This document shows, one piece after another, positions 5,707-58,271 of a stretch of 64,000 nt of DNA; position 1 is the first letter of the stretch; every line of letters starts with the position of its first letter. Made by a program: the position numbers and the translations under genes. The notes beneath the pieces were generated by a model. That model ran no database searches, had not been told where the DNA came from, and worked only from the letters and a program-made list of their open reading frames with translations. The DNA comes from Patescibacteria group bacterium (lineage in GTDB: Bacteria; Patescibacteriota; Minisyncoccia; Phycocordibacterales; CAIZLB01). The stretch covers positions 249,483 through 313,482 of the forward strand of contig JAZKJG010000001.1 in NCBI GenBank assembly GCA_040384445.1, in the 5' to 3' direction.

Positions 5707-7374
5707 TTAACCGAATGTAAATGTGAATGCTTCAAGTCCTGGAGAACCTGTTCGAATCTCAAGCGTATGTTCTCCATATTCATTTCCATCAACTAGTGTA
5801 TATAGTTCATTTGCCTGAATCACAATATCTTTCACCTTTTTTCCATCTATATATATCTCAGTTGTAATTGGTTTCTCTGAACTTGCAACCATATATACAC
5901 TTCTTGCATCATACTTGTACAAAATTTTTCCTTTAGTTTTTGACATGGCTGATTCCGGAGTAAAATTCCATGTTCCTTCTAGATACAGTTTATTTTTAAT
6001 TATTGTCTGTGGGATTACAAATGTCTGAGTACCCAACACTCCAGCTTTACCATTTTCAAGAACCAAGTTTCTTGCAGAACCAAAGTACACCTCCTTACTA
6101 TTCACTCTTGAAGACTCATAGTTCATCACATTATTAGGATTTACGATATCAGTTGGAATCTTTATTTCAGGTCTCGTAGCATTTAATTTAAGCAATGCCA
6201 TTTGAATTGCTCTCTCTGTTTCAAGATATTCACCTTCACCAATATGGTCATATACGATATTCCCCTCTTCATCAATCAAATATTTTCGTGGCCAATATTG
6301 ATTTCCATATGCATTCCAAGTCTGATATGAGTTATCCAACACTACTGGATGTTTTACGTTAAATTTTCGAACTGCCTCTTCTACATTTTTCTCAACTTTT
6401 TCAAATGCAAATTCTGGCGTATGAAGGCCTATCACAACTAATCCTTTATCTTTATATTTTTCATACCACGCGTTTACATACGGAAGCGTTCTCTGACAAT
6501 TAATACAACTATACGTCCACACATCAAGGAGAATCACTTTTTTACCCTTAAACTCTGCAATAGTTATTGGCTGACCATCAGTATTTATATACCCATCTGG
6601 ACTCACAAGTTCTGGTGCCACGGTTCCAATAACTTCAGAATTATTCTTTTTATCTAGTGATAAGATTTTCTGTTCAACTTTTGTAACATCAAACAATCCA
6701 GCATCAAGAATACTTCTTTGAATCTTCTTATCTATTCCAAACATGATTCCCACTCCAACAATAATAAACAGAACACCAAGTCCTTTTTTAAACCATCCGT
6801 TAGGATCTGCCAGATTTCCAAGCTTACCAACAAACCTTTGTCCTACAAACGCAATAAGGAGAAGCATTCCCGATAAACCAATCGTATATACCACAAGGCA
6901 AAGTAGTCCAAATAAAAATGATTGTGGCAATACTGTTGCTAAAATAACAAAATATGTTGGACTACATGTTGAGAATACTGGACCTAAAGATGCTCCAATA
7001 ATAATGTCACCGTACGTACTCTCTTTATTTGAACCGATATTCATTACCTTGTTTGACTTCAAGGAGAGTTTATTTACAAAACGAAGTCTATCCCACAGAT
7101 TTGGAAACAAACTGATCAATCCAAATACAATAATAATTGTTCCGGAAATTATTGCCCAAACTGTTGGAGGAATATCAATAAACGCAGTACTTACTTTCAG
7201 AATGAGAGTAAAAATAATAATCGATGCTGCAAGAGAGCCTGCAATAACAAATGCTTTCTTTCTGTTATTTACTCCAGATACAGTACTTCCAATAATAATC
7301 GGTAGAATTGGCAGTGTACATGGGGCAAGTATTGTGAGAACTCCTGCGATAAATGAAATAAGTAGTAATATCAT
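5707..7374 (-). CDS. CcdA/DsbD-like membrane electron transporter fused to a TlpA/ResA-like thioredoxin domain plus a ~170-aa C-terminal domain of unknown function
   Basis: 555 aa; N-terminal ~6 TM with CcdA-type Cys pairs; central WTYSCINCQ (WCxxC thioredoxin motif); beta-rich C-terminal extension not recognised. Confidence 0.65.
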   Translation of the reverse strand: MILLLISFIAGVLTILAPCTLPILPIIIGSTVSGVNNRKKAFVIAGSLAASIIIFTLILKVSTAFIDIPPTVWAIISGTIIIVFGLISLFPNLWDRLRFVNKLSLKSNKVMNIGSNKESTYGDIIIGASLGPVFSTCSPTYFVILATVLPQSFLFGLLCLVVYTIGLSGMLLLIAFVGQRFVGKLGNLADPNGWFKKGLGVLFIIVGVGIMFGIDKKIQRSILDAGLFDVTKVEQKILSLDKKNNSEVIGTVAPELVSPDGYINTDGQPITIAEFKGKKVILLDVWTYSCINCQRTLPYVNAWYEKYKDKGLVVIGLHTPEFAFEKVEKNVEEAVRKFNVKHPVVLDNSYQTWNAYGNQYWPRKYLIDEEGNIVYDHIGEGEYLETERAIQMALLKLNATRPEIKIPTDIVNPNNVMNYESSRVNSKEVYFGSARNLVLENGKAGVLGTQTFVIPQTIIKNKLYLEGTWNFTPESAMSKTKGKILYKYDARSVYMVASSEKPITTEIYIDGKKVKDIVIQANELYTLVDGNEYGEHTLEIRTGSPGLEAFTFTFG

Positions 7375-7446
7375 ATGTTTATTATAATGTTGTTAATCAT
7401 CAAGACCAAACGTCATAATCGATTGATCTTGATTCAAACAACAATA

Positions 7447-8058
7447 CTATTTAGTTGGCATCAACACAGAGTCGATCACAAATGTAACTCCATTCGAAGA
7501 AATTACATCTGCTGTCTCAACCATTGCTGTTCCATTAACAGTAAGTTGTCCGCTAGCTGATTTTCCAATCTTAAGTGACTCACCCTGAACTGTTTTAAGC
7601 ATCATCCCATCCTTAAGATCTGCTGAAGTATATCTTCCTGCTACAACGTGGTACGTAAGGATATTTGTAAGTTTTGCTTTGTTCTCTGGTTTTACCAAAG
7701 TTTCAACTGTTCCTGCTGGAAGTTTTGCAAAGGCAGCGTTTGTTGGAGCGAAAACCGTAAATGGTCCAGCACTCTTTAATGTATCAACCAATCCAGCTGC
7801 TTTAACAGCTGCAACCACTGTTGTTACATTACTTGCATTCATAGCATTATCTACAATATCTTTACTTTTCACCATCATAGCTCCACCAACCATCACCCCT
7901 TCTTCTCTTGTCATCACTTCACCACTATTATTATCCATCATAGAATTATTCATCATACTGTTTGATTCCATCATTTTATCGTCTTTGTTCAATAGAACTA
8001 ATCCGATAATTCCAAGTATAACGATAATTATGATTGTTATTGTAGTTTCTTTTGACAT
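7447..8058 (-). CDS. Fasciclin (FAS1) domain protein with N-terminal TM and M/N-rich low-complexity segment
   Basis: FTVFAPTNAAFAKLP...VTFVIDSVLMP are fasciclin signature blocks. Confidence 0.7.
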   Translation of the reverse strand: MSKETTITIIIIVILGIIGLVLLNKDDKMMESNSMMNNSMMDNNSGEVMTREEGVMVGGAMMVKSKDIVDNAMNASNVTTVVAAVKAAGLVDTLKSAGPFTVFAPTNAAFAKLPAGTVETLVKPENKAKLTNILTYHVVAGRYTSADLKDGMMLKTVQGESLKIGKSASGQLTVNGTAMVETADVISSNGVTFVIDSVLMPTK

Positions 8059-8095
8059 AGTTTTGGATATTAATTTAATTATTAAAAGTTTATAG

Positions 8096-8117
8096 TACTT
8101 AAGTAGATACTTAAGTA
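8096..8117. promoter_or_regulatory. Two copies of the self-complementary 10-mer TACTTAAGTA in the fasciclin gene upstream region
   Basis: tacttaagta at 8096-8105 and 8108-8117, separated by ga, 40-60 nt upstream of the fasciclin start. Confidence 0.3.
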
Positions 8118-8195
8118 ACTTAACTATATCCTTTTTGCGTATTAAAAGCTATGTATTTTGTTGTGAAGAATTTTTATGACACTAAAATTTAATTC

Positions 8196-9116
8196 TTACC
8201 ACCCTCCACTACTCCCTCCTCCACCGGAACTTCCACCTCCTCCTGAAAATCCTCCACCCCCACCACTTCTTCCTCCCGATCCTGACATCCCTCCCCAGAA
8301 TCCACCTCCACCCCTAGATTTTTTTATACTTTTTTGCAGTGCATCCAGTATTTTCTCTGAAAAAGATGATTTACCAGAAAAGAACGCATCCACAATCAAC
8401 CCGAGTAATGCAATAATAAAGACAAATACTGTTTGAGTAATAATAAACAACACTACAGAAAGTATAAGCCCCAGAAAAAACCCTAACCATACAGATCTAG
8501 ATTTTGACATTGCCACAAGAATTGAAACAATAACTGTCACAAGTGAAGAAAGTATAAAGAATATGAAAAATAAAACACCAAACCAATCACTCGGATTCAC
8601 ATTTAACCCCTCATCCGCCACATATGCCTCACCACGCGACACAATATCAATCATTCTATCAACAGCATCATTCACCCCCTTCCCATAATCTCCAGCTTGA
8701 AAAGCCGGTGTTACATTTTCCCTTCTTATAATATCCGTCAATGAATCTGGCATTACCCCTTCAAGCCCATAACCAACTTCAAATCTATTCTTTCTATCTT
8801 CAAGCGAAATCAAAAACAATAATCCATTATTCTTATCCTTCTGCCCAATTTCATTATTTTGAAACAGCTCATATGCAAATGTCTCAATAGTCTGATCCGA
8901 TGGAAGTTTAGGAATTGTTACCACAACTATCTGGTTCGATGTAGATGCGTTAAATGAAGCCAGCTTACTCTCTATAACAGCCTGTACGTCGTCAGGAATC
9001 ATGTTTGCAGTATCTGTGACAAACATACTCAACTTCATATCAACACCTTGCGCAGAGACATCTACAACAAAAAAACTGCATACACTCAATATGGTAATGT
9101 ATAGCAGTTTTTTCAT
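8196..9116 (-). CDS. TPM-domain (TLP18.3/Psb32/MOLO-1) protein with TM segments and Gly/Ser-rich C-terminal tail
   Basis: 306 aa; signal peptide, TPM phosphatase-like domain, 4 TM, GGGGSSGGGG tail; classic partner of LemA. Confidence 0.7.
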   Translation of the reverse strand: MKKLLYITILSVCSFFVVDVSAQGVDMKLSMFVTDTANMIPDDVQAVIESKLASFNASTSNQIVVVTIPKLPSDQTIETFAYELFQNNEIGQKDKNNGLLFLISLEDRKNRFEVGYGLEGVMPDSLTDIIRRENVTPAFQAGDYGKGVNDAVDRMIDIVSRGEAYVADEGLNVNPSDWFGVLFFIFFILSSLVTVIVSILVAMSKSRSVWLGFFLGLILSVVLFIITQTVFVFIIALLGLIVDAFFSGKSSFSEKILDALQKSIKKSRGGGGFWGGMSGSGGRSGGGGGFSGGGGSSGGGGSSGGW

Positions 9117-32262: not shown

Positions 32263-32358
32263 CCACCACCTCCCGGACCCCAATCCGGGAGGTGTTTTCA
32301 TAACATATCACCGTACTTTACAACTATTCACAATCTCTACATATCGTATAATACTCCT

Positions 32359-35300
32359 ATGTCTTTTACTCATCTCCATGTACATAGTCATTACAGCCTT
32401 CTTCAAGCTGTACCTAAAATTGATGAGCTTGTAAAGAAAACAAAAGAGTTTGGTATGACTTCCCTTGCGCTTACAGACAACGGTAATCTGTACGGTGCAA
32501 TTGAATTTTATAAAGAATGTACAGCAAAAGGAATTAAACCTATTATTGGTGTAGATTTTTATGTTGCAGCTCGAACACGTTTTGATAAAGAGGGGCGACT
32601 CGATACAAAAAGAACACGACATGTGTTGCTGGCAAAAAACTATGAAGGATATCTCAATCTTATAAAGCTTGTTACTGATTCAAATCTTGAAGGATATTAT
32701 TATAAACCTAGAATTGATGCAGAATTGATTGAAAAATATCATACTGATCTTATTTGTATATTACCTTTTTGGTCAAGTGCAGTTTCTGAAGCATTAAAAG
32801 TTGATGACGAAACTGTTGCACATCAAGAGTATGAGAAGTTAAAAAAGATCTACGGTGACGATAATATTTTTTATGAAATCACTCGTCACGAAGAATTGCA
32901 TGGTCACGATAAGTTAGAGGAGCGTGTTCTTGCATTTATAAAAAAATATAATGTAAAACCGGTTGCAACAAACGATGTCTTCTACATGAATCCGGAAGAT
33001 AAGAAAGCGAGGACAACTATGATGATGATTCAAAGTAGCGGTGAGCGCGTGATCGAAGATGATGCTGACCTCTCTTTTGCATCACCAGACCGGATGGAAG
33101 AATTATTTGCAGATGAACATAATCCAGAAAGAAATGCAGTATTTAAAGAGGCACTTAAGAATGCTGAAGTGATTTCTGATGCATGTAATGTGGAAATCGA
33201 ACTTGGAAAATGGGTGTTTCCTAAAATGGATTTACCAGAAGGAAAAGATGCAAACGAAGCACTTCGAGATGTCGTATATGAAGGATTTGCAAAACGTGGA
33301 GTAGAAAAAACAGAAGCAGTTCTTAAACGTGTTGAGTACGAACTAGAAGTTATTAAAAATAAAGGATACTCCCCTTACTTCCTCATCGTGTCTGACCTAC
33401 TTGCATATGCAAAAGCTCATGAGATTCTTTCAAACATTCGAGGATCTGTTTCTGGATCTATGGTGACATTCTTGTCTGGTATTACAAACATTGACCCACT
33501 CGAGTTTCAGATTCCTTTTGAACGATTCCTAAACCCAGAACGTCCATCTGCTCCGGACATCGACATGGACTACGCTGATGATAGACGAGATGAGATTATT
33601 GATTATGCTCGTTTTAAATATGGAGCTGACAAGGTGGCGCAGATTGGAACATTCGGAACTATGGCAGCAAAGGGTTCTATTAAAGATGTAACGCGAGCTA
33701 TGGGATTTCCATATACTCTCGGTGATCAGATTTCAAAACTTGTTCCGCTTGGATCACAAGGTTTTTTAATGACGATCGAACATGCGCTTGAAATCACAGA
33801 AGAATTAAAAACATTGTACGATACAAATCCAGATGTCCGAACAATTATAGACATGGCGAAGAAAGTTGAAGGGTGTGCGAGACATATCGGAGTGCATGCG
33901 GCCGGTGTGGTTATTTCCCCTACCGCCTTAACCGACTTTACCCCACTCCAGTATGATACAAAAGGTGAACAGAAAATTATTAGTCAGTATGACATGTACT
34001 CTATTGAAGAAGCAGGGCTTTTAAAGTTTGACTTCTTGGGACTCAAAAACTTAAAAATTATTTACGAGGCAAAAAAACTTGTACGGAATCGTTTCGGAAT
34101 TGACATTGATATTGACAACTTACGAATGGACGACAAAAAAACATTTGAAATGCTTGCGAGGGGTGAGACACAAGATTTATTTCAGTTGAACGGTGACGGA
34201 ATGACAAAATATTTGGTTGACCTTAAGCCAACAACCATTCACGATATCAATGCGATGGTGGCTTTGTATCGACCTGGACCTATTCAGTTTATTCCCATGT
34301 ATATTGAACGAAAGCATAATCCAACTCTTGTAACATACATGGACCCGATGCTTGAAGATATTCTTGAAAAAACATATGGAGTTCTTGTGTACCAAGATGA
34401 CCTTCTGATGATGGCACATAAGATTGCTGGATATTCTTGGGGAGAAGTAGATAAATTCCGAAAAGCTGTAGGTAAAAAAATCCCAGAAGAAATGGCCGCC
34501 CAAAAAGATAAGTTCATCAAAGGATGTGTTACTCATAGTAAGTGGACAGAAAAAAAGGCGTCAGATGTATGGAAATGGATTGAACCGTTTGCTGCGTACG
34601 GATTTAACAAAGCTCACTCAGTGTCATATGGACGAGTGGCATACGTAACGGCATTTCTAAAAGCAAACTATCCAACAGAATACATGACAGCGGTTTTGAC
34701 TGCAGAGTCTGGAGACCTAGAAGGAGTAGCTGTATCCATTAAAGAGTGTAGACGAATGGGTATTACTATTTTACCTTCAAGTATTAATGAAAGTTTTGGA
34801 ACATTTACCGTAATTCCCGAATACAATACAGAAACAGGAAAAGATGCGATTCGGTTTGGACTCTTCAGTATTAAAAACCTTGGTGAAGGTATTGCACAAA
34901 GTATTATTGAAAACAGAACTACACATGGAGATTTTACGAGTATTGAAAATTTCTTAGAAAGAATTCAAGATAGAAACTTAAACAGAAAATCTCTTGAAGC
35001 ATTAATCAAAGCTGGAGCCATGGATGATCTTGGTGATCGAATTGAATTGCTTGATGGACTTGAAAAATATTTGGAGTACAACAAATCAAATGCAAAAATG
35101 GATAGTTCTCAAACAAGTTTGTTTGATTTATTTGCCGCACCTGTTGAAGAAGTTGAAGTTATTAAAGGAAAGATTTTACAGAGACCTGAGACATTACAAC
35201 AACGACTTGTGTGGGAGAAAGAACTTCTTGGATTTTACATTTCTGGTCACCCACTTGATAAGTATAAATCTGTGTTTGAAAAACGAGATATTGATGTGCT

Positions 35301-35580
35301 TAAAGTTATAGCCACTGGAGTGAACGAAAAAATGTACATCCTTGGAGGAATTGTTGAAAAAGTAAAAGAAATTCCAACAAAGAAAGATCCGATGAAAAAG
35401 ATTATGTTTTTCACACTGAAGGATTTATCTGGAGAGATTGAGTGTGTGGTGTTTCCGAAGCAAATTGACCTTGCACGAAAAGTGATTATAGAAGAGTCGT
35501 GTATTGTGTTTAAAGGAAAGTTTTCAGAGCATGAGGATAAGAAGAGTTTGGTGTTTGAGAGCGCACAGAAGTTAAACTAA
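32359..35580 (+). CDS. dnaE: DNA polymerase III alpha subunit
   Basis: 1073 aa; N-terminal PHP domain (HLHVHSHYSLL), polymerase core, C-terminal OB domain. Confidence 0.9.
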   Translation: MSFTHLHVHSHYSLLQAVPKIDELVKKTKEFGMTSLALTDNGNLYGAIEFYKECTAKGIKPIIGVDFYVAARTRFDKEGRLDTKRTRHVLLAKNYEGYLNLIKLVTDSNLEGYYYKPRIDAELIEKYHTDLICILPFWSSAVSEALKVDDETVAHQEYEKLKKIYGDDNIFYEITRHEELHGHDKLEERVLAFIKKYNVKPVATNDVFYMNPEDKKARTTMMMIQSSGERVIEDDADLSFASPDRMEELFADEHNPERNAVFKEALKNAEVISDACNVEIELGKWVFPKMDLPEGKDANEALRDVVYEGFAKRGVEKTEAVLKRVEYELEVIKNKGYSPYFLIVSDLLAYAKAHEILSNIRGSVSGSMVTFLSGITNIDPLEFQIPFERFLNPERPSAPDIDMDYADDRRDEIIDYARFKYGADKVAQIGTFGTMAAKGSIKDVTRAMGFPYTLGDQISKLVPLGSQGFLMTIEHALEITEELKTLYDTNPDVRTIIDMAKKVEGCARHIGVHAAGVVISPTALTDFTPLQYDTKGEQKIISQYDMYSIEEAGLLKFDFLGLKNLKIIYEAKKLVRNRFGIDIDIDNLRMDDKKTFEMLARGETQDLFQLNGDGMTKYLVDLKPTTIHDINAMVALYRPGPIQFIPMYIERKHNPTLVTYMDPMLEDILEKTYGVLVYQDDLLMMAHKIAGYSWGEVDKFRKAVGKKIPEEMAAQKDKFIKGCVTHSKWTEKKASDVWKWIEPFAAYGFNKAHSVSYGRVAYVTAFLKANYPTEYMTAVLTAESGDLEGVAVSIKECRRMGITILPSSINESFGTFTVIPEYNTETGKDAIRFGLFSIKNLGEGIAQSIIENRTTHGDFTSIENFLERIQDRNLNRKSLEALIKAGAMDDLGDRIELLDGLEKYLEYNKSNAKMDSSQTSLFDLFAAPVEEVEVIKGKILQRPETLQQRLVWEKELLGFYISGHPLDKYKSVFEKRDIDVLKVIATGVNEKMYILGGIVEKVKEIPTKKDPMKKIMFFTLKDLSGEIECVVFPKQIDLARKVIIEESCIVFKGKFSEHEDKKSLVFESAQKLN

Positions 35581-42262: not shown

Positions 42263-42622
42263 TTATCTCACGTAGAATCTCACAAGTAGTCCAAACAACA
42301 GCAAAGTCATTGCAAGTAACATGATCGTAGATATATATCGCTCTTTTACAATTGCAAATATTGAACCAAACAAAAACACAGTAGGAATAATAAAATGATG
42401 TACACCGGCCACACACGCATCTGTACACAGCAGTAATATTATAAACGGATATATACTTCCAACACACACAACAACTATTCCAACCCAACTCAGCACAGTA
42501 GTGAGTGTTTCAAATCTCTCATTTGCTGGTGTAAAATTTACCATGCGGAGGATGTGAGATTCGAACTCACGGAACCATTTCTGGCTCGACAGTTTAGTAA
42601 ACTGTTGATTTAAACCACTCAT
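42263..42622 (-). CDS. Membrane protein (119 aa), hypothetical
   Basis: 2-3 TM helices. Confidence 0.35.
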   Translation of the reverse strand: MSGLNQQFTKLSSQKWFREFESHILRMVNFTPANERFETLTTVLSWVGIVVVCVGSIYPFIILLLCTDACVAGVHHFIIPTVFLFGSIFAIVKERYISTIMLLAMTLLLFGLLVRFYVR

Positions 42623-42665
42623 CCAATCCTCCTTTCTTATAGGGATAATACCCTACAAGTTTATG

Positions 42666-43211
42666 TTATGCAAACCAATGTTTTATCTCATCCTCCGCCT
42701 CTTTAACGCTCCCAGAAGCGTGTACAAGGTTCTTCACTGATCGATCTTCATCAACTGCAATCTGGTACGAATCAACCACGTAATCCCCTCGTATTGTCCC
42801 CACATCAGACGACAGAGGTTCTGTGCCTCCGATAAGCTTTCGTACAATCTTCACCGCATGTGGACCTTCCCAAACCATAGGGATTACAGGACCTGCTGTC
42901 ATGTATCGTGACAATCTTCCAAGTACTGCATCAGCCAACACGATAGGATCTTCGCTTGGTGGCGTTAATCCTTTTTCCCTATAACTCGCAAGCGTTTTCT
43001 GTCCCACTGAATCTTTCCATCCTGCCTCAAGTGTATAGTGCTTTTCAACATGGTCAGGAGTAGTACTAACCATTTTCATATCAACTAACTTCAAACCAAC
43101 TCTCTCAAATCGAGAAATGATTTCACCAACAAGACTTCTCTCTACTCCGTCTGGTTTTACTATTATAAGTGTTCTTTCTACGTGATTATGTGCCATAAAA
43201 TTATGATTCAC
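42666..43211 (-). CDS. ndk: Nucleoside diphosphate kinase
   Basis: 181 aa; ERTLIIVKPDGVERSLVGEIISRFERVGLKLV, NLVHASGS (catalytic His region). Confidence 0.9.
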   Translation of the reverse strand: MNHNFMAHNHVERTLIIVKPDGVERSLVGEIISRFERVGLKLVDMKMVSTTPDHVEKHYTLEAGWKDSVGQKTLASYREKGLTPPSEDPIVLADAVLGRLSRYMTAGPVIPMVWEGPHAVKIVRKLIGGTEPLSSDVGTIRGDYVVDSYQIAVDEDRSVKNLVHASGSVKEAEDEIKHWFA

Positions 43212-44871
43212 AACTTACACAAACCTTCTTTCGACTTAACACCTGAGCAGCGTTCATACTGTGTTGGTAATACAATGTTTTCACACCACTTTTCCATGCA
43301 TCAATATATAGAGCGTTGATCTCTTTTGCTGTAGTTGTTTTAGGATTGATCATCAGGTTAAGAGACTGACTCTGATCGATAAACATTTGTCGTGCTCCGG
43401 CTTGATCAATAATCGCATACTGGTCGATTTCAGCGAATGTTTTAAATACATCTTTTTCTTCTTGAGAAAGAAAATCAATATGCTGCACAGATCCATCTTT
43501 ATCTCGAATATCTTGCCATACATCTTTTGTATTCTTTCCTTTTGACTCAAGAAGTTTTTCCAAGAATGGATTTGTAATTGTTACTTTCATTTTCTCAATA
43601 TCTTTCACGTAACAGTTTGACCATACAGGTTCGATACTCTGAGATACTTGTCCTAGAATAAACGCAGAAGATGTTGTGGGTGCAACAGCACATAATGTTG
43701 TATGTCTTCGTCCAATCCCTTCAAGCATTTTAGGTTCTCCGTACTTCACCGCCATTTCCGCTGATGCTTCGTACGCTTTTGTTTTTATAAATTTAAATAG
43801 TTCAACATTAAGAACTGCAGCTTCCTGACTTTCAAAAGAAATCATTTTACTTTGTAGGAATGAGTGCCATCCAAGTACCCCTAATCCAATCGCTCGGTTC
43901 TCAACAGCAAATCTGTATGATTTTTCCATAAAATAAAACTCTTGTCGTCGCTCTGCATCTTCTGAATCTCGATATCCTTCTAGTTTATTGATAAAATCAG
44001 TCATCACCGCATCAAGGAAATATGTCAGAGTCTGAACTGCATCTGTTGTTTTCCAATCATCATAATACAATGCATTCATTGAAGATAAGCAACACACAAA
44101 AGACCATTCATTGTTTGAAGGTAGTGCAATTTCACTACACAGGTTACTTGCATAAATCTTATGCTTATCTTTATACACCTCAACAGTATTATTGTTTACG
44201 TTATCTGAGAACAAAATATATGGATATCCGATTTCTGTTCGTCGTTTAATTACTTTCGCCCATACATTTCGCTTCTCTTCATCTCCATCTTGCATCTCTT
44301 TCATCCACTTGTCTGTTACCGTAACTGCATGTGTAAGTCCTTGAATTGGATCTCCTTCTGTTCCTACATTTAAAAACTCATCAATATCTGGATGCTCAAC
44401 AGGAAGATACGCAGCTAAATGTCCTCTTCTTGTTGACCCTTGACTCACCACGTTTGTAACCGTATCAAACAATCGCATAAAATGAACTGGTCCTGATGAT
44501 GTACCGTTGTTTGTGATCGCTGCCCCTCGAGCTCTAAGATCTCCAAAATATGCAGATGTTCCTCCTCCTTTTTTACTCATCATACCCACTTCTGCTGTTG
44601 TATATAGAATGTCTCCCATTGTGTCTCCAACATATGAACCAAAGCAACTAATTGGTAGCCCTTTAGCAAAACCGAAGTTAACCCACACAGGTGTGGCAAG
44701 AGAATAATATCCCTTTTCCATATATCCATAAAATTTATCGGCAAATCCTGGAATTCCTAGGATTTTTTCTGCATGCTCTGCAAGAAAACGAATTCGTTCT
44801 TCTGCTGTTGACCCATCGTTAATATAATCTTTTGCAAGGAATTTTCTACTATTTTCGTTGAGCCATTTCAT
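43201..44871 (-). CDS. nrdA: Class I ribonucleotide reductase alpha subunit, short form lacking an N-terminal ATP-cone
   Basis: 556 aa; active-site NLCSEI; begins directly in the catalytic barrel with no VxKRDG ATP-cone motif. Confidence 0.75.
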   Translation of the reverse strand: MKWLNENSRKFLAKDYINDGSTAEERIRFLAEHAEKILGIPGFADKFYGYMEKGYYSLATPVWVNFGFAKGLPISCFGSYVGDTMGDILYTTAEVGMMSKKGGGTSAYFGDLRARGAAITNNGTSSGPVHFMRLFDTVTNVVSQGSTRRGHLAAYLPVEHPDIDEFLNVGTEGDPIQGLTHAVTVTDKWMKEMQDGDEEKRNVWAKVIKRRTEIGYPYILFSDNVNNNTVEVYKDKHKIYASNLCSEIALPSNNEWSFVCCLSSMNALYYDDWKTTDAVQTLTYFLDAVMTDFINKLEGYRDSEDAERRQEFYFMEKSYRFAVENRAIGLGVLGWHSFLQSKMISFESQEAAVLNVELFKFIKTKAYEASAEMAVKYGEPKMLEGIGRRHTTLCAVAPTTSSAFILGQVSQSIEPVWSNCYVKDIEKMKVTITNPFLEKLLESKGKNTKDVWQDIRDKDGSVQHIDFLSQEEKDVFKTFAEIDQYAIIDQAGARQMFIDQSQSLNLMINPKTTTAKEINALYIDAWKSGVKTLYYQHSMNAAQVLSRKKVCVSCES

Positions 44872-44907
44872 GATGTTGTGTAGTTAGTTTGTTATGTATG
44901 TTTTTAA

Positions 44908-46218
44908 TTAAAATAGATCATTTCCAGTGATACTTGTAACTCGTTTGTTGTAGTTCACCGATCTCTTAACGAAGAAGTCTCCATGTTTCGTTGTCATAAT
45001 CTCGTCGTCAAACCAATCTGTTTTTGCAAGTGTTGCTGGGTCGATATCGAAGATTTTCTTAATTCCAAGTGATACCAATGAGTTGTTGAATCTATTTTTT
45101 ATAAATTCCTTGATCACATCTTTTGGCAAGAAATCCAACTCTCCCTTCTCAAAAATCCAATCAATAATTCTTTCTTCTGCCTTATATGCCTCTTCGCACA
45201 GGCTGATAACACTTTCTTCGTATTGTGCATCAAACCATTCTGGATGCTCTTGTTGAATAATCTTAATCAAATCGATACCAAATAGTCCATGAATCTGCTC
45301 TTCTTTCGATGTGGCCTCAATCACATTCGACATTCCTCTAAACATTGATTTATGTTTATTGAACGACATAATGATCAAAAACTGTGAGAACAACGATACA
45401 TGTTCTATGAATAAAGAAAACAGTAGTAGAGTTTTAGAATAATCTTTCTCGCTTCCAAATGATGCATATGAAATCGCTTTCTCTACATAATTTACCCGAT
45501 CCATGATTGCTGGAATAGATTTGATGTTATCAAACTCATCGTTCAAACCTAAAATATCAAGCAGGTTCGCATACGCATCAGCGTGTCGAACTTCTGACTC
45601 TGCAAACGTAGCTCCAACCGCCCCAATCTCTGGTTTTGGAATCTTTTTGTACACATCTCCCCAAAAAGTTTTTACAGACACCTCAACTTGTGCAATTGCA
45701 AGCATTGCATTCTTAAGTGCACTTCGTTCTACCTCGTTAATGTTTGCTTTGTAGTCATGAATGTCAGATGTGAAGTTAAATTCACTATGTAACCAGTACG
45801 AGTGTCGGATTCCATCCACGTATTCGAGTAATTCTGGGTATTCGTATGGACGTAATGCCACTCTTTTTTTAAATAGATCTCTTTTTCGAGCTTCTGCATG
45901 CTTTTCTCGGTACAGGATGTATGCTTTTGCTGTTGCAAACAGATCAGATCGCATCAACATAATTTCAACAACATCTTGAACACCCTCTACTGAAGGTGTA
46001 AAAGATCCATCTTTGTTCTTTCCTTCTAGATTTTCAATAACTTTCTGTGATAGTTCCTGCGCTAGTCCGTTTTTATACTCACCAGACTCTTTTAGCGCTT
46101 TTTCAATGGCAACAACAACTTTTTCAGGATTAAAATTAACGATTGATCGATCTCGTTTAAGAACAAAACTTATTTTGTGATGTGCTGCTTTTGTCATAGG
46201 TACTATATATAATATCAT
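44908..46218 (-). CDS. nrdB: Class I ribonucleotide reductase beta subunit (R2, ferritin-like) with N-terminal ATP-cone
   Basis: 436 aa; residues ~15-105 form an ATP-cone (VLKRDRSIVNFNPEKVVVAIEKAL...); the remainder has diiron ligand motifs ESEVRHADAY and SKEEQIHG. Confidence 0.8.
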   Translation of the reverse strand: MILYIVPMTKAAHHKISFVLKRDRSIVNFNPEKVVVAIEKALKESGEYKNGLAQELSQKVIENLEGKNKDGSFTPSVEGVQDVVEIMLMRSDLFATAKAYILYREKHAEARKRDLFKKRVALRPYEYPELLEYVDGIRHSYWLHSEFNFTSDIHDYKANINEVERSALKNAMLAIAQVEVSVKTFWGDVYKKIPKPEIGAVGATFAESEVRHADAYANLLDILGLNDEFDNIKSIPAIMDRVNYVEKAISYASFGSEKDYSKTLLLFSLFIEHVSLFSQFLIIMSFNKHKSMFRGMSNVIEATSKEEQIHGLFGIDLIKIIQQEHPEWFDAQYEESVISLCEEAYKAEERIIDWIFEKGELDFLPKDVIKEFIKNRFNNSLVSLGIKKIFDIDPATLAKTDWFDDEIMTTKHGDFFVKRSVNYNKRVTSITGNDLF

Positions 46219-46376
46219 TAAAACTCTGATAAAGAATACATCAATACCTCCTTTGGTACCTTACAGTACACATACATCCATATGTAAATAGTTACGGTGG
46301 AAAATGTACAAAAGTAAGGAACTATATACTTTCAACCTGTCGTCAACTTGACAATTCTGCAACAAATTTTTTAGTG

Positions 46377-46407
46377 AAAAAACACTCAAGATTATGAGTG
46401 TTTTTTT
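46377..46407. terminator. Bidirectional hairpin terminator downstream of the LOG-family gene
   Basis: A-run, cactca-agatta-tgagtg, then ttttttt. Confidence 0.5.
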
Positions 46408-46423
46408 ATTTGAAAAATATTTT

Positions 46424-47020
46424 TTAGAGCAATTGTTTTTTTTCTCGAACCATATTCATCACTTTCGTTACCAACTTTCGAGGATCTTTATCAAACGCAA
46501 TGTATTTATTTGTTCTATGACTCTTTTCAATGATAAATTTTATCACTTCATCAGTCTCCCATCCATCTCCCTCTAGAATCCCCATCGGTGTCTCACCTTC
46601 AAATGCAATTGTAAACTCATGAATCGTTCCAATTCTTCCTGGTCCAATAATAATCCCATCACATGAACGAGTAAAGATAATATCTCTTCCTGGATACCCA
46701 AAACCTGTGAACGAAATTAAATCCATATAATCAAGAGGAAGTCGATACACATCAGTATGCTCTTTTGGACCTACAGCTGGAGAAAAACCAATTGATAATC
46801 CACCAGCATGTTTCGCCCCCATCGCAGACCAGTGAGGAAAACCAGTTGAAGCACCAGTTACAAGTATTCCTCCCTGCTCAACAATCTCAGCTCCAAGCTG
46901 TTTTCCAATCTGACATACTTCCTGAGTTAAAAAACTTCCGTCAGCACTTGCACTTACTCCAATCTTTGGTGTAAGGTATGCTTTTTTTATATCAGTCTGC
47001 ACAGTTGAAGTTACTTTCAT
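46424..47020 (-). CDS. LOG/TIGR00725-family Rossmann-fold protein
   Basis: 198 aa; VTGASTG...GGLSIGFSP...GPGRIGTIHEF resemble LOG-family PGGxGTxxE and glycine-rich motifs. Confidence 0.5.
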   Translation of the reverse strand: MKVTSTVQTDIKKAYLTPKIGVSASADGSFLTQEVCQIGKQLGAEIVEQGGILVTGASTGFPHWSAMGAKHAGGLSIGFSPAVGPKEHTDVYRLPLDYMDLISFTGFGYPGRDIIFTRSCDGIIIGPGRIGTIHEFTIAFEGETPMGILEGDGWETDEVIKFIIEKSHRTNKYIAFDKDPRKLVTKVMNMVREKKQLL

Positions 47021-47571: not shown

Positions 47572-48138
47572 TTAATATTTCCGTATAACTCCTTTTACAA
47601 TCGCCACAATCTGGAATGATTCAGTTGGATAAATATCCTTAAAATCTTTATTTGCAGGTCGTAAGAAAATAGTGTCACCTTTTTTCTTGAAATATTTCAT
47701 AGTGAATCCTCCGTCAACTTCAGCGATCACTATTTCCCCATCTTTCGCATCTGACTTTTTCTCAACAATCACATAATCTCCTTCCTTGATACCTTCATCA
47801 ATCATAGAGTCACCTTTTACCTCAAGAATGTAACTGTTCTCTTTGTGTGGCATCAAGTACTGATCTATATCAATCGTGTCTAACAAATCTTCCTCGGCAA
47901 GTGAAGGTAAACCGGCTTCAACATATCCAAGGAAAGGAACTTCATCACTCATGAACGCTGGTGTAATCTTTCCTTTCGCATCTTTAAGAATTACCCCAAG
48001 CTCAACAAGCTTATTAATAAGCTTGTAGACTGCGTTCTTAGATTTAAAACCAGTAAGCGACATGATCTCGGCATAACCGGGCATACGCTTATTGTTTTCA
48101 TAAAATGAGAGTATCTTTTTTTTGTAGGTGTCTATCAT
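47572..48138 (-). CDS. lexA: LexA repressor
   Basis: 188 aa; N-terminal wHTH; cleavage site VEAGLPS (Ala-Gly); S24 peptidase Ser (GDSM) and Lys. Confidence 0.85.
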   Translation of the reverse strand: MIDTYKKKILSFYENNKRMPGYAEIMSLTGFKSKNAVYKLINKLVELGVILKDAKGKITPAFMSDEVPFLGYVEAGLPSLAEEDLLDTIDIDQYLMPHKENSYILEVKGDSMIDEGIKEGDYVIVEKKSDAKDGEIVIAEVDGGFTMKYFKKKGDTIFLRPANKDFKDIYPTESFQIVAIVKGVIRKY

Positions 48139-55908: not shown

Positions 55909-56541
55909 ATGACAAACATCACAAAAGCATTGCATTGGCGCTATGCAACAAAAAAATTTGATCTATCTAAAAAGATTTCTCCTGAGACACTTACAGATCT
56001 TAAAGAAAGTATCAGATTAGCACCTTCATCGTACGGACTACAACCATATACAATTATTGATGTTTCAATTCCAGAAATTAGAGAAAAATTAAAAGATGCT
56101 GCATACGGACAAACACAGCTCACAGATGCGTCACATCTTTTTGTGTTTGCTGTCCCTACAGATATGAATGAAGCTCATGCTGATGAGTTTATTAGTGCCC
56201 ATGCAACTATTCGCAATGTACCAGTTGAATCTCTTGCAGGATATGCAGGTATGATTAAAGATAATATCGCATCGAAAACAACTGAACAGAAAATTATATG
56301 GGCGGAAAAGCAGGCATATATTGCTCTTGGATTTTTACTTGAAACTGCAGCACTGCTTGAAGTGGATGCTGCTCCTATGGAAGGTTTTGAAGCAGCGAAA
56401 TTTGATGAGATTCTCGGATTAAAAGCAAAGAATCTGACCACTGCAGTTATCTGCCCCATTGGATACCGCGCACACGATGATGAATATGCAAATCAACCAA
56501 AGGTACGAAAAACTGAGAGTGAATTGTTTTTGAGTCTATAA
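55909..56541 (+). CDS. NAD(P)H nitroreductase family protein
   Basis: Start at internal ATG (MTNITKALHWRYATKKF...); nitroreductase fold motifs. Confidence 0.7.
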   Translation: MTNITKALHWRYATKKFDLSKKISPETLTDLKESIRLAPSSYGLQPYTIIDVSIPEIREKLKDAAYGQTQLTDASHLFVFAVPTDMNEAHADEFISAHATIRNVPVESLAGYAGMIKDNIASKTTEQKIIWAEKQAYIALGFLLETAALLEVDAAPMEGFEAAKFDEILGLKAKNLTTAVICPIGYRAHDDEYANQPKVRKTESELFLSL

Positions 56542-57876
56542 TTTTACCTCCATCAACTCCTCCCACACTGTCGTAAACCTCGGACTCATAAGATTACGCT
56601 TCATGCCCCAGCCTGAAGCGTTTTTCTTTGCAGAATTAATTCTCTTCAACTTATCAGGAGTACCCTGTGATGCCAACACAAGAGAATGTTGTCCATACTT
56701 TTTATTTATCCTATCAAGAGCATCCATCACTTCGTTTTTATCTGTATTCATAAAATCAAACAACGAATTCACTTGTGACGATTCAGGATTCAAATCATTA
56801 AACACAACTCCCGCTTTTACATATTGAAACAGCTCTCCATTATTCGCATATTTTTTAAAACATTTTTTAAATAAATTAAACGCAACTCTGTTTAAAATAA
56901 ATGTATCGTTTGTAGCTCGTACTAAGTTAGCTGATGCAGTCCCTTGATACCTAAGCTCCGCATGACGGCCAGTTGAAATATATACCGTAATTCTCGAGCA
57001 GATTAATTTTTCTTGCCGTAACTTTTCTGCCCCTCTTCCAATGTGTGTTGATACTGCTTGGAGTATCAATTTTGGATCAGTTACTTTTTGACCGAACATT
57101 CGACTCCGAATTAAACTCTTTCTCTGCTCACCTACAAGATCGAGAAATATACACGGAATTCCTTTAAGCTCTAGACATGTTCGCTCTAACACTACGTTAT
57201 ACTTTTTCCGCATTGCTAAAGGTTCAGCATTCATCAAATCTCGTGCCGTCAACAATCCAACATCTTGTAGTCTTCTTCCCCACGCTCGTCCAACACCCCA
57301 CACATCAGTGATACTTAAATTTTCTATAAACGTTGCTTTATCCTCATGCTCCCAAAAACATACACATGGTATCTTTTTCGCTTTCAATAATTTCTTCGCA
57401 TATTCACTTCCAACTTTGGCAAGTGTTTTTGTTTCAGCAATAGAAATTCGAACTGGAATACCAGTACCCTTAAGAACCTCTCTGTACATAGTCTCCGCAA
57501 GATTTTGTAAACGTATTCGCTCATCTGCAATATTATCTTCATCAGTATTTAAATAAATAAAAGCCTCATCAATAGAACACTGTTCAACCTCATCGCTAAA
57601 TCGTGAGATCACCTGCATTACTCTTCTACTCATATCTGCATACAAACAATAGTTAGAGGAAAATACTGAAACCTTAAATTCCTCAAGTGTTTTCTTTACT
57701 TGATAAAACGGTGTACCTACCATCACACCGAGAGCTTTTACTTCTGGAGTAAGTGATACGACGGCCCCATCATTGTTCGACAATACGCATATTGGTTTAT
57801 CTTTTAAATCAGGCCGAAATGCCCGCTCGCATGAACAGTAAAAAGATGAGCAATCGATGAGTGCAAAGAGTTTCAT
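56536..57876 (-). CDS. umuC: Y-family translesion DNA polymerase (UmuC-like)
   Basis: 446 aa; MKLFALIDCSSFYCSCERAF... N-terminus typical of UmuC/ImpB; 4-nt overlap with the upstream umuD. Confidence 0.8.
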   Translation of the reverse strand: MKLFALIDCSSFYCSCERAFRPDLKDKPICVLSNNDGAVVSLTPEVKALGVMVGTPFYQVKKTLEEFKVSVFSSNYCLYADMSRRVMQVISRFSDEVEQCSIDEAFIYLNTDEDNIADERIRLQNLAETMYREVLKGTGIPVRISIAETKTLAKVGSEYAKKLLKAKKIPCVCFWEHEDKATFIENLSITDVWGVGRAWGRRLQDVGLLTARDLMNAEPLAMRKKYNVVLERTCLELKGIPCIFLDLVGEQRKSLIRSRMFGQKVTDPKLILQAVSTHIGRGAEKLRQEKLICSRITVYISTGRHAELRYQGTASANLVRATNDTFILNRVAFNLFKKCFKKYANNGELFQYVKAGVVFNDLNPESSQVNSLFDFMNTDKNEVMDALDRINKKYGQHSLVLASQGTPDKLKRINSAKKNASGWGMKRNLMSPRFTTVWEELMEVKL

Positions 57877-58271
57877 TTTCGAAGTATTCGAGCAAAACCT
57901 GTAACCACTCCCCAGATCTGCACATCTTGTTCACTCTCAGGGATGATGTCAGGAAATTCTTCGTTCGACGCTTCGAAGATAATGCAGCTTCCTTTTTTTC
58001 TAAATGTTTTAACCGTAAATTCACTATCAATTACCGCAATTACAATATCTCCGTCACGAGCATCCAAATCTCTGCGCACATGTAAAATATCACCTGGCAT
58101 AATGCCAGAATTTTTCATCGACATTCCAACAGCCCTCACGTAAAAAGATGTTGCTTCATCAACTTGAAACAAATCATTTATATCTATATTTTTTTCCAAA
58201 TAGTCATCTGCTTGAGATGGAAATCCTGCCTGAACTTGAGTTGTAAAAAATGGGATTGTTTTCGCGAGCAT
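57873..58271 (-). CDS. umuD: UmuD-like S24 self-cleaving protein (no HTH)
   Basis: 132 aa; aligns to E. coli UmuD (VQAGFPSQADDY...GMSM...GDIVIA...EFTVK); Ser and Lys catalytic residues present. Confidence 0.75.
   Translation of the reverse strand: MLAKTIPFFTTQVQAGFPSQADDYLEKNIDINDLFQVDEATSFYVRAVGMSMKNSGIMPGDILHVRRDLDARDGDIVIAVIDSEFTVKTFRKKGSCIIFEASNEEFPDIIPESEQDVQIWGVVTGFARILRK

Follow-up and report, generated by a model that had tools for sequence, protein, structure and literature searches.

The nrd locus described here is very probably an aerobic, manganese-dependent class Id ribonucleotide reductase (RNR) operon, in which a radical-generating β subunit bearing an ATP-cone (NrdBi) is followed by its catalytic α subunit (NrdAi), with an ndk gene added at the 3′ end. 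The operon lies in a 64,000-nucleotide stretch of DNA (the window) whose host belongs to the Patescibacteria (CPR). The enzyme is an ordinary member of a characterized kind, the mechanism of which was published in 2018, and is not a new one. Its domain architecture, its subclass and the conservation of catalytic, metal and cone residues can be read from the locus itself, while the biochemical steps proposed below are carried over by homology from the enzymes of Leeuwenhoekiella blandensis (Lb) and Facklamia ignava. The features of the locus are as follows.

44908..46197, minus strand: nrdB, class Id (NrdBi) radical-generating β subunit, 429 aa plus stop.
45895..46167, minus strand: ATP-cone of NrdB (PF03477), residues 11-101 of the 429-aa form.
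45043..45861, minus strand: ferritin-like metal-binding core of NrdB (PF00268, E 2e-58), residues 113-385.
44911..45042, minus strand: C-terminal α-binding tail of NrdB, ending in ...NYNKRVTSITGNDLF, 72% identical to the Lb tail.
43201..44871, minus strand: nrdA, class Id (NrdAi) catalytic α subunit (TIGR02510), 556 aa, 36 nt past nrdB.
42666..43196, minus strand: ndk, long-type nucleoside diphosphate kinase (PF00334), 176 aa from its most likely start.
42545..42632, minus strand: tRNA-Ser (anticodon ACU), 33 nt past ndk.
46200..46217, minus strand: AT-rich block TGATATTATATATAGTAC, directly 5′ of the nrdB ATG, whose DNA sequence is conserved in 5 loci.
46341..46353, minus strand: palindrome TGTCAAGTTGACG, about 145 nt 5′ of nrdB, kept in L001 and L046.
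46377..46406, minus strand: terminator-like hairpin with a 12-bp stem and U-run, 3′ of a SLOG/LOG-like gene.

The three tightly packed genes had been listed as minus-strand reading frames at 44908..46218 (436 aa), 43201..44871 (556 aa) and 42666..43211 (181 aa). All three are present, and it is two of the starts that need to be moved. Sequence comparison makes ATG 46197 the most likely start of nrdB, as the DNA beneath the seven extra codons of the longer form (MILYIVP) stays conserved in related loci, including ones where that frame is interrupted by a stop, and the homologues are mostly 429 aa long. The exact protein is also in NCBI in its 429-aa form (MES2985807.1, from a Patescibacteria MAG and generically annotated). 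The 436-aa start at 46218 was rejected, because a stop closes the frame in three related loci (L001, L046 and L017) though the DNA is conserved. For ndk, the most likely start on sequence grounds is ATG 43196 (176 aa), which falls 4 nt past the nrdA stop and is used at the same position in the L051 orthologue; the alternative, GTG 43211, would give an 11-nt overlap with nrdA. Neighbors in the window include the SLOG/LOG-like gene, a cyclophilin, a LexA-like S24 peptidase, the tRNA-Ser and small unknown ORFs. Recent horizontal acquisition was considered on the basis of composition and dropped, since the GC content of the operon (0.374-0.384) is that of the window.

The original prediction placed an ATP-cone on the N-terminus of β and none on α, and a PF03477 search of both subunits bears this out. 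In NrdB the match covers residues 18-108 in the 436-aa numbering and profile positions 2-87 of 88, with an E-value of 6.4e-20 (6.1e-20 for the 429-aa form) and a score of 71.9 bits, where the gathering score is 25.8; it is followed at residues 120-392 of the same numbering by the Ribonuc_red_sm domain. The AlphaFold model builds the cone as a hairpin (strands 11-13 and 19-21) and four helices (24-38, 45-60, 70-83 and 87-108) at a pLDDT of 84-93 and ties it to the core via a flexible linker, while residues 404-429 have the low pLDDT expected of a disordered tail. A Foldseek search with this model returns 5OLK, from L. blandensis, as the top match, aligned over 394 columns that include the cone, with class Id β subunits next. 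Given a Pfam score above the gathering score, a full-length alignment to 5OLK and the modeled fold, the NrdB N-terminus is by sequence a bona fide ATP-cone, and it is predicted to bind nucleotide.

Conservation within the cone is extensive. The K14-R15 motif is retained, as are the residues matching Lb D73, E76, M80, K89, I92, R95 and R102, and about 20 cone positions, including the KR motif and the R95 and R102 equivalents, are invariant across 36 homologues of 62-89% identity. Such conservation, together with a Pfam score of 72 bits and a domain predicted at high confidence by AlphaFold, makes it very improbable that the cone is a degenerate remnant that plays no part in regulation, even though ATP-cones have been gained and lost frequently in RNR evolution (PMC5794259) and cone-bearing and cone-less NrdBi are interspersed in a neighbor-joining tree.

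The metal site places the protein among the class Id β subunits, which are defined by a Glu first ligand paired with a second-sphere Tyr among six carboxylate or His ligands (PMC8463856). In NrdB the first ligand is Glu, not Asp, and it is paired with Y209. All six ligands are conserved (E172, E202, H205, E265, E300 and H303 in the 429-aa numbering, corresponding to Lb E170, E200, H203, E263, E298 and H301), as are the signature residues K176, W179, Y209 and T296 (Lb K174, W177, Y207 and T294). K176 corresponds to the Lys of the unwound helix B that faces the metal site, and T296 to the Thr that holds the Tyr off Mn1; both are invariant in the 36 homologues. The best PDB matches of β are all class Id subunits (5OLK, 6SF4, 8DQ3 and 6CWO), with 5OLK aligned end to end at 59% identity (E 1.6e-167), and in the neighbor-joining tree the window NrdB and the L. 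blandensis enzyme group together in a single cone-bearing clade. The full-length alignment to 5OLK, the conserved ligands and signature Lys, Trp, Tyr and Thr, and the retention of most of the tetramer interface thus identify the window RNR as class Id (NrdAi/NrdBi) and, by homology, as Mn-dependent. This is the subclass that had been proposed for the operon, and the α subunit points the same way.

NrdA scores 768.3 bits against the TIGR02510 "NrdE-prime" model, where the cut-off is 602.25, and the PDB entries that it matches best are the class Id α structures 6DQX (E 4e-209) and 6DQW (E 2e-172). The catalytic set, with the thiyl Cys in N-x-C-x-E, the redox Cys pair, the YY radical-transfer pair and the C-terminal CxxC, is present: ISC76, N243-x-C245-x-E247, C261/C262, Y534-Y535 and C551-x-x-C554. 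A 12-residue insertion at residues 298-309, EGYRDSEDAERR, is absent from both 6DQX and 6DQW. The Pfam profile search finds no PF03477 match on NrdA, nor can a cone be hidden upstream, as only 4 open codons precede its ATG. The subunit had been described as short and as starting directly in the catalytic barrel. Its length of 556 aa agrees with the first point and the barrel itself is clear (PF02867, E 4e-96), but a shortened all-α N-domain is kept in front of it, seen as a sub-threshold match to PF00317 at residues 4-70 (26.9 bits versus 28).

The closest characterized system is the L. blandensis NrdAi/NrdBi pair (5OLK, 6SF4/6SF5; eLife 2018, PMC5794259). Both β subunits run in the same order, from cone through a short linker and ferritin core to a disordered tail; both operons place nrdB before nrdA, and α lacks a cone in each. 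Identity between the two NrdB proteins is 59% overall, at 40% in the cone, 64% in the core and 72% in the tail, and the metal ligands, Lys174, Trp177, Tyr207, Thr294 and most of the cone-cone interface are shared. The two differ in host, one being a flavobacterium and the other a member of the Patescibacteria, and in the ndk gene appended to the window operon. Among other class Id RNRs compared, those of Flavobacterium johnsoniae, Aggregatibacter actinomycetemcomitans and Actinobacillus ureae (6CWO-6CWQ, 8DQ3, 6DQW and 6DQX) share with the window enzyme the Glu first ligand, the unwound-helix Lys, the Tyr-Thr pair and a minimal α subunit; unlike the window NrdB, the F. johnsoniae protein (6CWO-6CWQ) is cone-less, and the 8DQ3 chain matches the window core only. 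The Grx::ATP-cone::NrdBi of F. ignava (PMC6187632) belongs to the same NrdBi subclass and also has its cone on β, although it carries a glutaredoxin domain that is missing from the window NrdB, which begins with the cone. The on/off switch and Mn2(IV,III) cofactor of that enzyme are predicted for the window enzyme as well. The cone of Pseudomonas aeruginosa NrdA (5IM3) is of the type predicted for the window NrdB, binding two dATP and pairing via its last two helices, and every dATP-binding residue in it is reportedly found in the Lb cone too. In P. aeruginosa, however, the cone sits on α and leads to α4, whereas in the window it sits on β.

By analogy with the published class Id and cone-on-β work (PMC5794259, PMC8350387, PMC6754362 and PMC8463856), the β subunit would carry a Mn2(IV,III) cofactor assembled with superoxide and would have no tyrosyl radical. 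The α subunit would be a minimal catalytic subunit lacking an overall-activity site, so that overall activity would be set by the cone of β. With ATP bound, the β dimer may join α in an active α2β2 complex. With dATP bound, at two per cone, the cones of two β dimers would pair via helices 3 and 4 to form β4, which may trap α2 as α2β4 or α4β4 and put the asymmetric active geometry out of reach.

It is possible, though unlikely, that the cone is a functional sensor working in another mode than that of L. blandensis, through a different nucleotide number, a different oligomer or an α-β contact in place of β4. The cone is only 40% identical to that of L. blandensis, Lb I93 is replaced by Leu, and Lb R98, an Arg there, is His in the window. 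At interface position 77, the Lb Asp is replaced by Ile at a site that varies within the clade; the interface residue called 'Asp76' in the published description could correspond either to Lb sequence position 76 (Glu, conserved here) or to position 77 (Asp, Ile here). Oligomer types also vary among RNR ATP-cones (PMC11226230), and the F. ignava cone, of the same subclass, binds one ATP and not two (PMC6187632), so nucleotide stoichiometry is not readable from homology. Set against this, the window NrdB falls in the same clade as the Lb protein, and the interface residues M80, K89, I92, R95, D73 and E76, together with the γ-phosphate Arg102 (Lb numbering), are invariant across that clade. A switch through β4 of the L. 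blandensis type is the more probable reading.

The third gene encodes an Ndk (PF00334, E 8e-37) with its catalytic His within NLVHAS. It aligns over its full length with the Pyrobaculum aerophilum enzyme 1XQI (E 2.6e-48), including both insertions, extra segments that are missing from ordinary Ndks of ~140 aa; unlike 1XQI, it has a bacterial (CPR) host and is placed in an RNR operon. Ndk would convert the dNDP products of the reductase to dNTPs, and the 4-nt gap suggests that it is probably co-transcribed with nrdA. The co-operonic ndk of the original prediction is thus found in the window, but it is not a general trait: of the 39 related loci whose sequence extends far enough downstream, only 2 (L001 and L051) have ndk 3′ of nrdA. 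In the closest relatives a conserved tRNA-Ser with an ACU anticodon flanks the nrd operon on its 3′ side. In these ndk sits between nrdA and the tRNA-Ser, while in the sister loci L017 and L045 the same tRNA-Ser directly follows nrdA with no ndk between. This arrangement implies that ndk entered an existing junction, and the comparison of loci identifies it as a recent lineage-specific insertion and not a feature of the cone-NrdB RNR system. Whether the insertion is also neutral, with no functional coupling beyond a shared transcript, is evenly balanced. Its restriction to two testable loci, the bare nrdA-tRNA-Ser junction of the sister loci and the heterogeneous 3′ neighbors of nrdA in other relatives favor neutrality; the RNR product is, however, the substrate of Ndk, the 4-nt spacing suggests coupled expression, and the nrdA-ndk arrangement has been kept in three species with Ndk proteins 74-76% identical.

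The operon is apparently read from a short-leader promoter directly before nrdB. The AT-rich block TGATATTATATATAGTAC is conserved as DNA in the 5 loci whatever the reading frame, and the window holds no second copy at up to 2 mismatches and one match at 3. The block probably serves as an extended -10 promoter (TGnTATTAT) giving an mRNA with a very short leader; many -10 boxes abut start codons in this genome, and no Shine-Dalgarno sequence is found for nrdB, nrdA or ndk. In a consensus scan for σ70 promoters and terminators no promoter passed and no enrichment was seen, and the scan missed the AT-rich hairpin. That hairpin, at 46377..46406, folds at -13.6 kcal/mol (z = -5.15, with 0 of 200 shuffles as good) and separates the SLOG/LOG-like gene from the nrd transcription unit. 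The palindrome TGTCAAGTTGACG may act as an operator or a -35 region. Its pattern TGTCAAnTTGACR was rejected as a regulon motif, as further copies in the window occur no more often than by chance. A Shine-Dalgarno-like AAAGGAGG with a 7-codon uORF (46241..46218, its stop overlapping ATG 46218) occurs in the window only, is absent in relatives and is taken as chance. Searches for known regulators gave little: 5′ of nrdB no riboswitch or leader RNA reaches the Rfam gathering score, with sub-threshold matches falling only on the terminator hairpin; NrdR boxes (acaCwAtATaTwGtgt) at up to 3 mismatches are not found near nrdB, and the 2 elsewhere in the window equal chance expectation; and no second ATP-cone ORF, of the kind that an NrdR would be, was found in the 64-kb window by phmmer or by Pfam on large ORFs.

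The architecture had been put forward as rare. This is true of RNRs taken together and of RefSeq in 2018, but not of the relatives recovered here, as the cone is present in all 120 of the closest database clusters. It occurs in about 18% of the best 150 NrdBi-like clusters at 50% identity. Related matches are found in 51 species genomes, nearly all of them Patescibacteria, and mostly start within the first ~12 residues; 48 of the 51 loci have nrdB and then nrdA on one strand, and the other 3 are cut short. In the literature consulted, ATP-cone::NrdBi proteins are described as mostly flavobacterial, and no paper in it combines RNRs of Patescibacteria or CPR with an ATP-cone. With architecture, structure and mechanism published between 2018 and 2021 and the protein already in NCBI, the modest addition made here is phyletic. 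Since the nearest 120 clusters and the 51 species genomes are overwhelmingly patescibacterial, cone-on-β appears to be a frequent form of RNR in Patescibacteria, at least among the relatives recovered.

Related class Id operons hold a further observation, in that two unrelated families of small predicted FMN proteins are wedged into them, one PNPOx-like (~123 aa, for example L005 9010-9381) and one nitroreductase-like (L040 7616-8257). We know of no activase or superoxide source for class Id, and these genes in sister operons are perhaps more useful to RNR specialists than the window itself. In the window there is no PNPOx-like gene, and no flavodoxin-like NrdI gene was found among the neighbors of the RNR genes. 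Nor does the window contain a second RNR, as judged by phmmer and Pfam on large ORFs and by the NrdD profile on ORFs of at least ~460 aa. A broader proposal, which we offer only tentatively and consider rather doubtful, is that the cone-on-β class Id enzyme is the only RNR in this reduced-genome lineage, with ndk and the flavoproteins as lineage-specific accessories and the flavoproteins as the missing activase that supplies superoxide. All organisms with an ATP-cone NrdB in the 2018 set also have another RNR (PMC5794259), and a lineage with this RNR alone would contradict that rule. Its DNA synthesis would then hang on superoxide derived from O2 and be throttled solely through the β subunit.

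The genes nrdB, nrdA and ndk are closely packed on the minus strand of the window, with a palindrome upstream and a tRNA gene downstream:

46341-46353, minus strand, palindrome TGTCAAGTTGACG upstream of nrdB
44908..46218, minus strand, nrdB ORF, 436 aa as first read, ATP-cone then RNR small chain
43201..44871, minus strand, nrdA ORF, 556 aa, RNR barrel
42666..43211, minus strand, ndk ORF, 181 aa as first read, nucleoside diphosphate kinase
42545-42632, minus strand, tRNA-Ser with anticodon 5'-ACU-3' (A34)

The original prediction placed an ATP-cone on the beta subunit (NrdB) and none on the alpha subunit (NrdA), and both parts hold. In Pfam searches, NrdB residues 18-108 match the ATP-cone PF03477 (E 6.4e-20) with 71.9 bits where the gathering score is 25.8, far beyond chance; behind the cone lies the RNR small-chain domain PF00268 (E 2e-58). 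NrdA contains the RNR barrel PF02867 (E 4e-96) and a shortened all-alpha N-domain, PF00317, that is sub-threshold (26.9 bits vs 28), and the profile search of its 556-aa ORF found no ATP-cone. No cone is hidden on alpha, as the open frame reaches just four codons beyond the nrdA ATG on its 5' side and the nrdB stop is only 36 nt away. Ndk matches PF00334 (E 8e-37).

The cone-on-beta layout was also linked to the NrdAi/NrdBi subclass (class Id), an assignment that is supported at several levels. NrdA falls in the NCBIfam family TIGR02510 ("NrdE-prime"), scoring 768 bits where the curated cut-off is 602, and aligns with the class Id alphas 6DQX (E 4e-209) and 6DQW (E 2e-172). The best match of NrdB to a solved structure is the ATP-cone NrdB of Leeuwenhoekiella blandensis (5OLK, E 1.6e-167), in an alignment running from residue 14 to the C-terminal end; next come the class Id betas 6SF4, 8DQ3 and 6CWO, which are cone-less chains. 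Identity to the L. blandensis protein is 59% in a residue map (cone 40%, core 64%, C-terminal tail 72%), and all six of its metal ligands (E170, E200, H203, E263, E298, H301) are kept, as are Trp177, the Tyr207-Thr294 pair and, in the unwound helix B, Lys174 (L. blandensis numbering). Such features, together with the metal ligands, define class Id in the literature (PMC6754362, PMC8463856). The NrdA catalytic residues are present (N243-x-C245-x-E247, C76, C261/C262, the Y534-Y535 pair and a C-terminal CxxC). An AlphaFold model of NrdB built on 36 homologues has a cone made up of a beta-hairpin and four helices (pLDDT 84-93), a low-confidence linker (residues 104-120) and a helical core; the first Foldseek match to this model is 5OLK, ahead of class Id betas. 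In a rough NJ tree built from the core domains, the window NrdB and the L. blandensis enzyme share one cone-bearing clade. The evidence supports a class Id RNR with its cone on beta, of a known, structurally characterised kind. A 12-residue acidic/basic insertion in NrdA, EGYRDSEDAERR (residues 298-309; window 43945-43980, minus strand), has no counterpart in 6DQX or 6DQW, the two solved class Id alphas.

The L. blandensis cone binds two ATP or two dATP. ATP yields beta2 and active alpha2beta2, while dATP pairs the cones of two dimers via helices 3 and 4 into beta4, which captures alpha2 as alpha2beta4 or alpha4beta4 and sterically blocks the asymmetric active complex (PMC5794259, PMC8350387). 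By homology, the window enzyme most likely uses the same switch: an ATP-bound cone would leave beta2 and active alpha2beta2, dATP would join cones through helices 3/4 into beta4, and beta4 would trap alpha2 in inactive alpha2beta4 or alpha4beta4. The interface and phosphate-contact residues D73, E76, M80, K89, I92, R95 and R102 are kept, with I93 replaced by Leu. Across 36 homologues at 62-89% identity these positions vary little or not at all, which argues that the cone is under selection. Asp at L. blandensis position 77 is Ile in the window and R98 is His. The "Asp76" of the published work maps uncertainly onto the sequence, so the interface match at that residue is uncertain. Nucleotide stoichiometry is not safely predictable by homology, since the cone of a relative, that of F. 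ignava, takes only one ATP (PMC6187632).

The nrdB start is most likely ATG 46197, giving 429 aa, the length of most NrdB homologues and of the exact NCBI match (MES2985807.1, from a Patescibacteria group bacterium MAG, 314-kb contig). The 46218 start is disfavoured: the 21 nt for the extra MILYIVP fall inside the block TGATATTATATATAGTACCT-ATG, whose DNA sequence is retained by five related loci, although in three of them the MILYIVP frame is closed by a stop. The TGATATTATATATAGTACCT block is read as a probable extended -10 element (TGnTATTAT) that stops 11 nt short of ATG 46197, and this reading fits the wider genome because 17 of 58 long ORFs in the window have a TATAAT box (at least 5/6) ending 5-8 nt before the first ATG (for example, starts 48138, 47020, 20409, 14086 and 9676), vs 3.7% of all ATGs. 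No Shine-Dalgarno sequence is found at nrdB, nrdA or ndk, nor at many boxed genes in the window; leaderless or very short-leader mRNAs are suggested to be widespread in this organism. The ndk start is most likely ATG 43196, 4 nt past the nrdA stop, matching the start of an orthologue in a related locus (L051).

Directly upstream of nrdB, 46424-47020 (minus strand) encodes a SLOG cluster-4/TIGR00725 protein (LOG-like, Rossmann-fold) that may act in nucleotide salvage; the gene has the same position in four related loci with NrdB at least 75% identical (L001, L017, L045, L046). A 12-bp hairpin with a U-run at 46377-46406 (z = -5.15) appears to end this gene in terminator-like fashion, so the nrd unit would start downstream of it. 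L001 retains both the palindrome and a block, GTTTACATAT...GTATGTGT (46270-46300, minus strand), and L046 retains them in part; the palindrome is not enriched elsewhere in the window. Neither qualifies as an NrdR box, of which there are none, and no Rfam family matched upstream of nrdB. A LexA-like S24 repressor (47572-48138, minus strand) lies three genes upstream of nrdB, past the SLOG and cyclophilin genes, and the window also encodes a UmuC-type Y-family polymerase (56539-57930, minus strand) and DnaE (32263-35577, plus strand); no operator common to these genes and nrdB was detected.

The link to ndk stands for the window, where ndk is closely packed behind nrdA and coupling of dNDP production to phosphorylation is sensible, but it is not conserved across the cone-on-beta system. 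Of 39 loci whose sequence runs far enough downstream, only two have ndk after nrdA (L001, NrdB 89% identical; L051, 80%). In L017 and L045, both slightly more distant, nrdA is immediately followed by the same tRNA-Ser, so ndk was inserted into a pre-existing nrdA/tRNA junction in one sub-lineage. The window Ndk is of the long type and aligns full-length, with both extra segments, with Pyrobaculum aerophilum NDK (1XQI, E 2.6e-48). The tRNA is conserved in five species (the window; L001 9663-9750; L051 2754-2841; L017 5205-5292; L045 9045-9132), with compensatory changes in the variable arm. Its anticodon is odd because AGY is a two-codon box sharing its first two bases with the frequent Arg codon AGA, which a tRNA with inosine at position 34 would misread. 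Across 13 sampled genes there are 72 AGT and 13 AGC codons.

Eight related Patescibacteria class Id operons carry a gene for a PNPOx_N protein of about 123 aa (PF01243, E 1e-10 to 1e-12), predicted to be of the FMN-binding split-barrel type, directly 3' of nrdA, on the same strand and overlapping the nrdA stop or within about 30 nt:

L005 9010-9381; L007 5445-5819; L008 7221-7586; L009 7242-7418 (cut)
L010 2973-3344; L011 6388-6801; L047 8989-9360; L048 8953-9330

The gene is absent from the 64-kb window. Three Gracilibacteria loci (L040, L041, L044) have an ASCH protein and a nitroreductase-family flavoprotein between the cone-bearing nrdB and nrdA, the latter being a second flavoprotein family, unrelated to the PNPOx-like one, that sits inside class Id operons; in Gracilibacteria HOT-871 (L040, CP017714.1; translated with code 25) these are 7287-7622 (PF04266) and 7616-8257 (PF00881, E 6.6e-23). 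Class Id is not known to have an NrdI-like activase. Class Id beta requires superoxide, and of more than 260 known genes none is near an NrdI (PMC8463856); both flavoprotein types are therefore candidate activators.

The arrangement had been called rare, which is true across RNRs as a whole but not among the window's recovered relatives. A 2018 count found 93 RefSeq NrdBi proteins with cones, 70 from Flavobacteriales, and every such species also had another RNR (PMC5794259); no second RNR or other ATP-cone ORF lies within the 64-kb window. In a search of 5.8 billion proteins, the best 120 clusters all had both cone and small chain, those named being Patescibacteria, Parcubacteria, Pacebacteria, Levybacteria and Nomurabacteria. 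To avoid bias to cone-bearing matches, the core domain alone was searched against 1.84 billion cluster representatives, giving 241 clusters at E <= 1e-30; among the best 150, 29 were extended at the N-terminus by 85 aa or more, and 27 of these matched PF03477 (about 18% of 150). Cone-on-beta is thus a minority within NrdBi, yet the standard form in this clade. That search also returned P0148, a 1019-aa representative with an N-terminal extension of about 110 aa, PF00268 and then PF02867, which appears to be a single-chain NrdB-NrdA fusion, and another with a YfbR-like HD 5'-deoxynucleotidase domain. In many NrdBi representatives of 560-820 aa the core match is split in two, with breaks near core position ~95 or ~196, as expected if an intein were present; of 30 scanned, 2 had confirmed Hint/intein domains.

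A scan of one genome per species gave 51 loci at 55-89% identity, with nrdA following nrdB on the same strand in 48 and the other three ending early. Hosts include Paceibacterota, Kaiserbacteria, Nomurabacteria, Gracilibacteria (including the complete genome CP017714.1), Peribacteria, Levyibacteriota and Saccharibacteria-labelled MAGs, along with two flavobacterial MAGs and three loci labelled Woesearchaeota. The last (L010, L048, L050) come from contigs assigned in binning to 'Candidatus Woesearchaeota archaeon' and have the cone-nrdB/nrdA pair at 55-65% identity, and L010 and L048 the PNPOx-like gene too; they reflect either transfer into DPANN archaea or mis-binning. Relative to published examples of cone-on-beta, the window locus represents a new phylum-level host.
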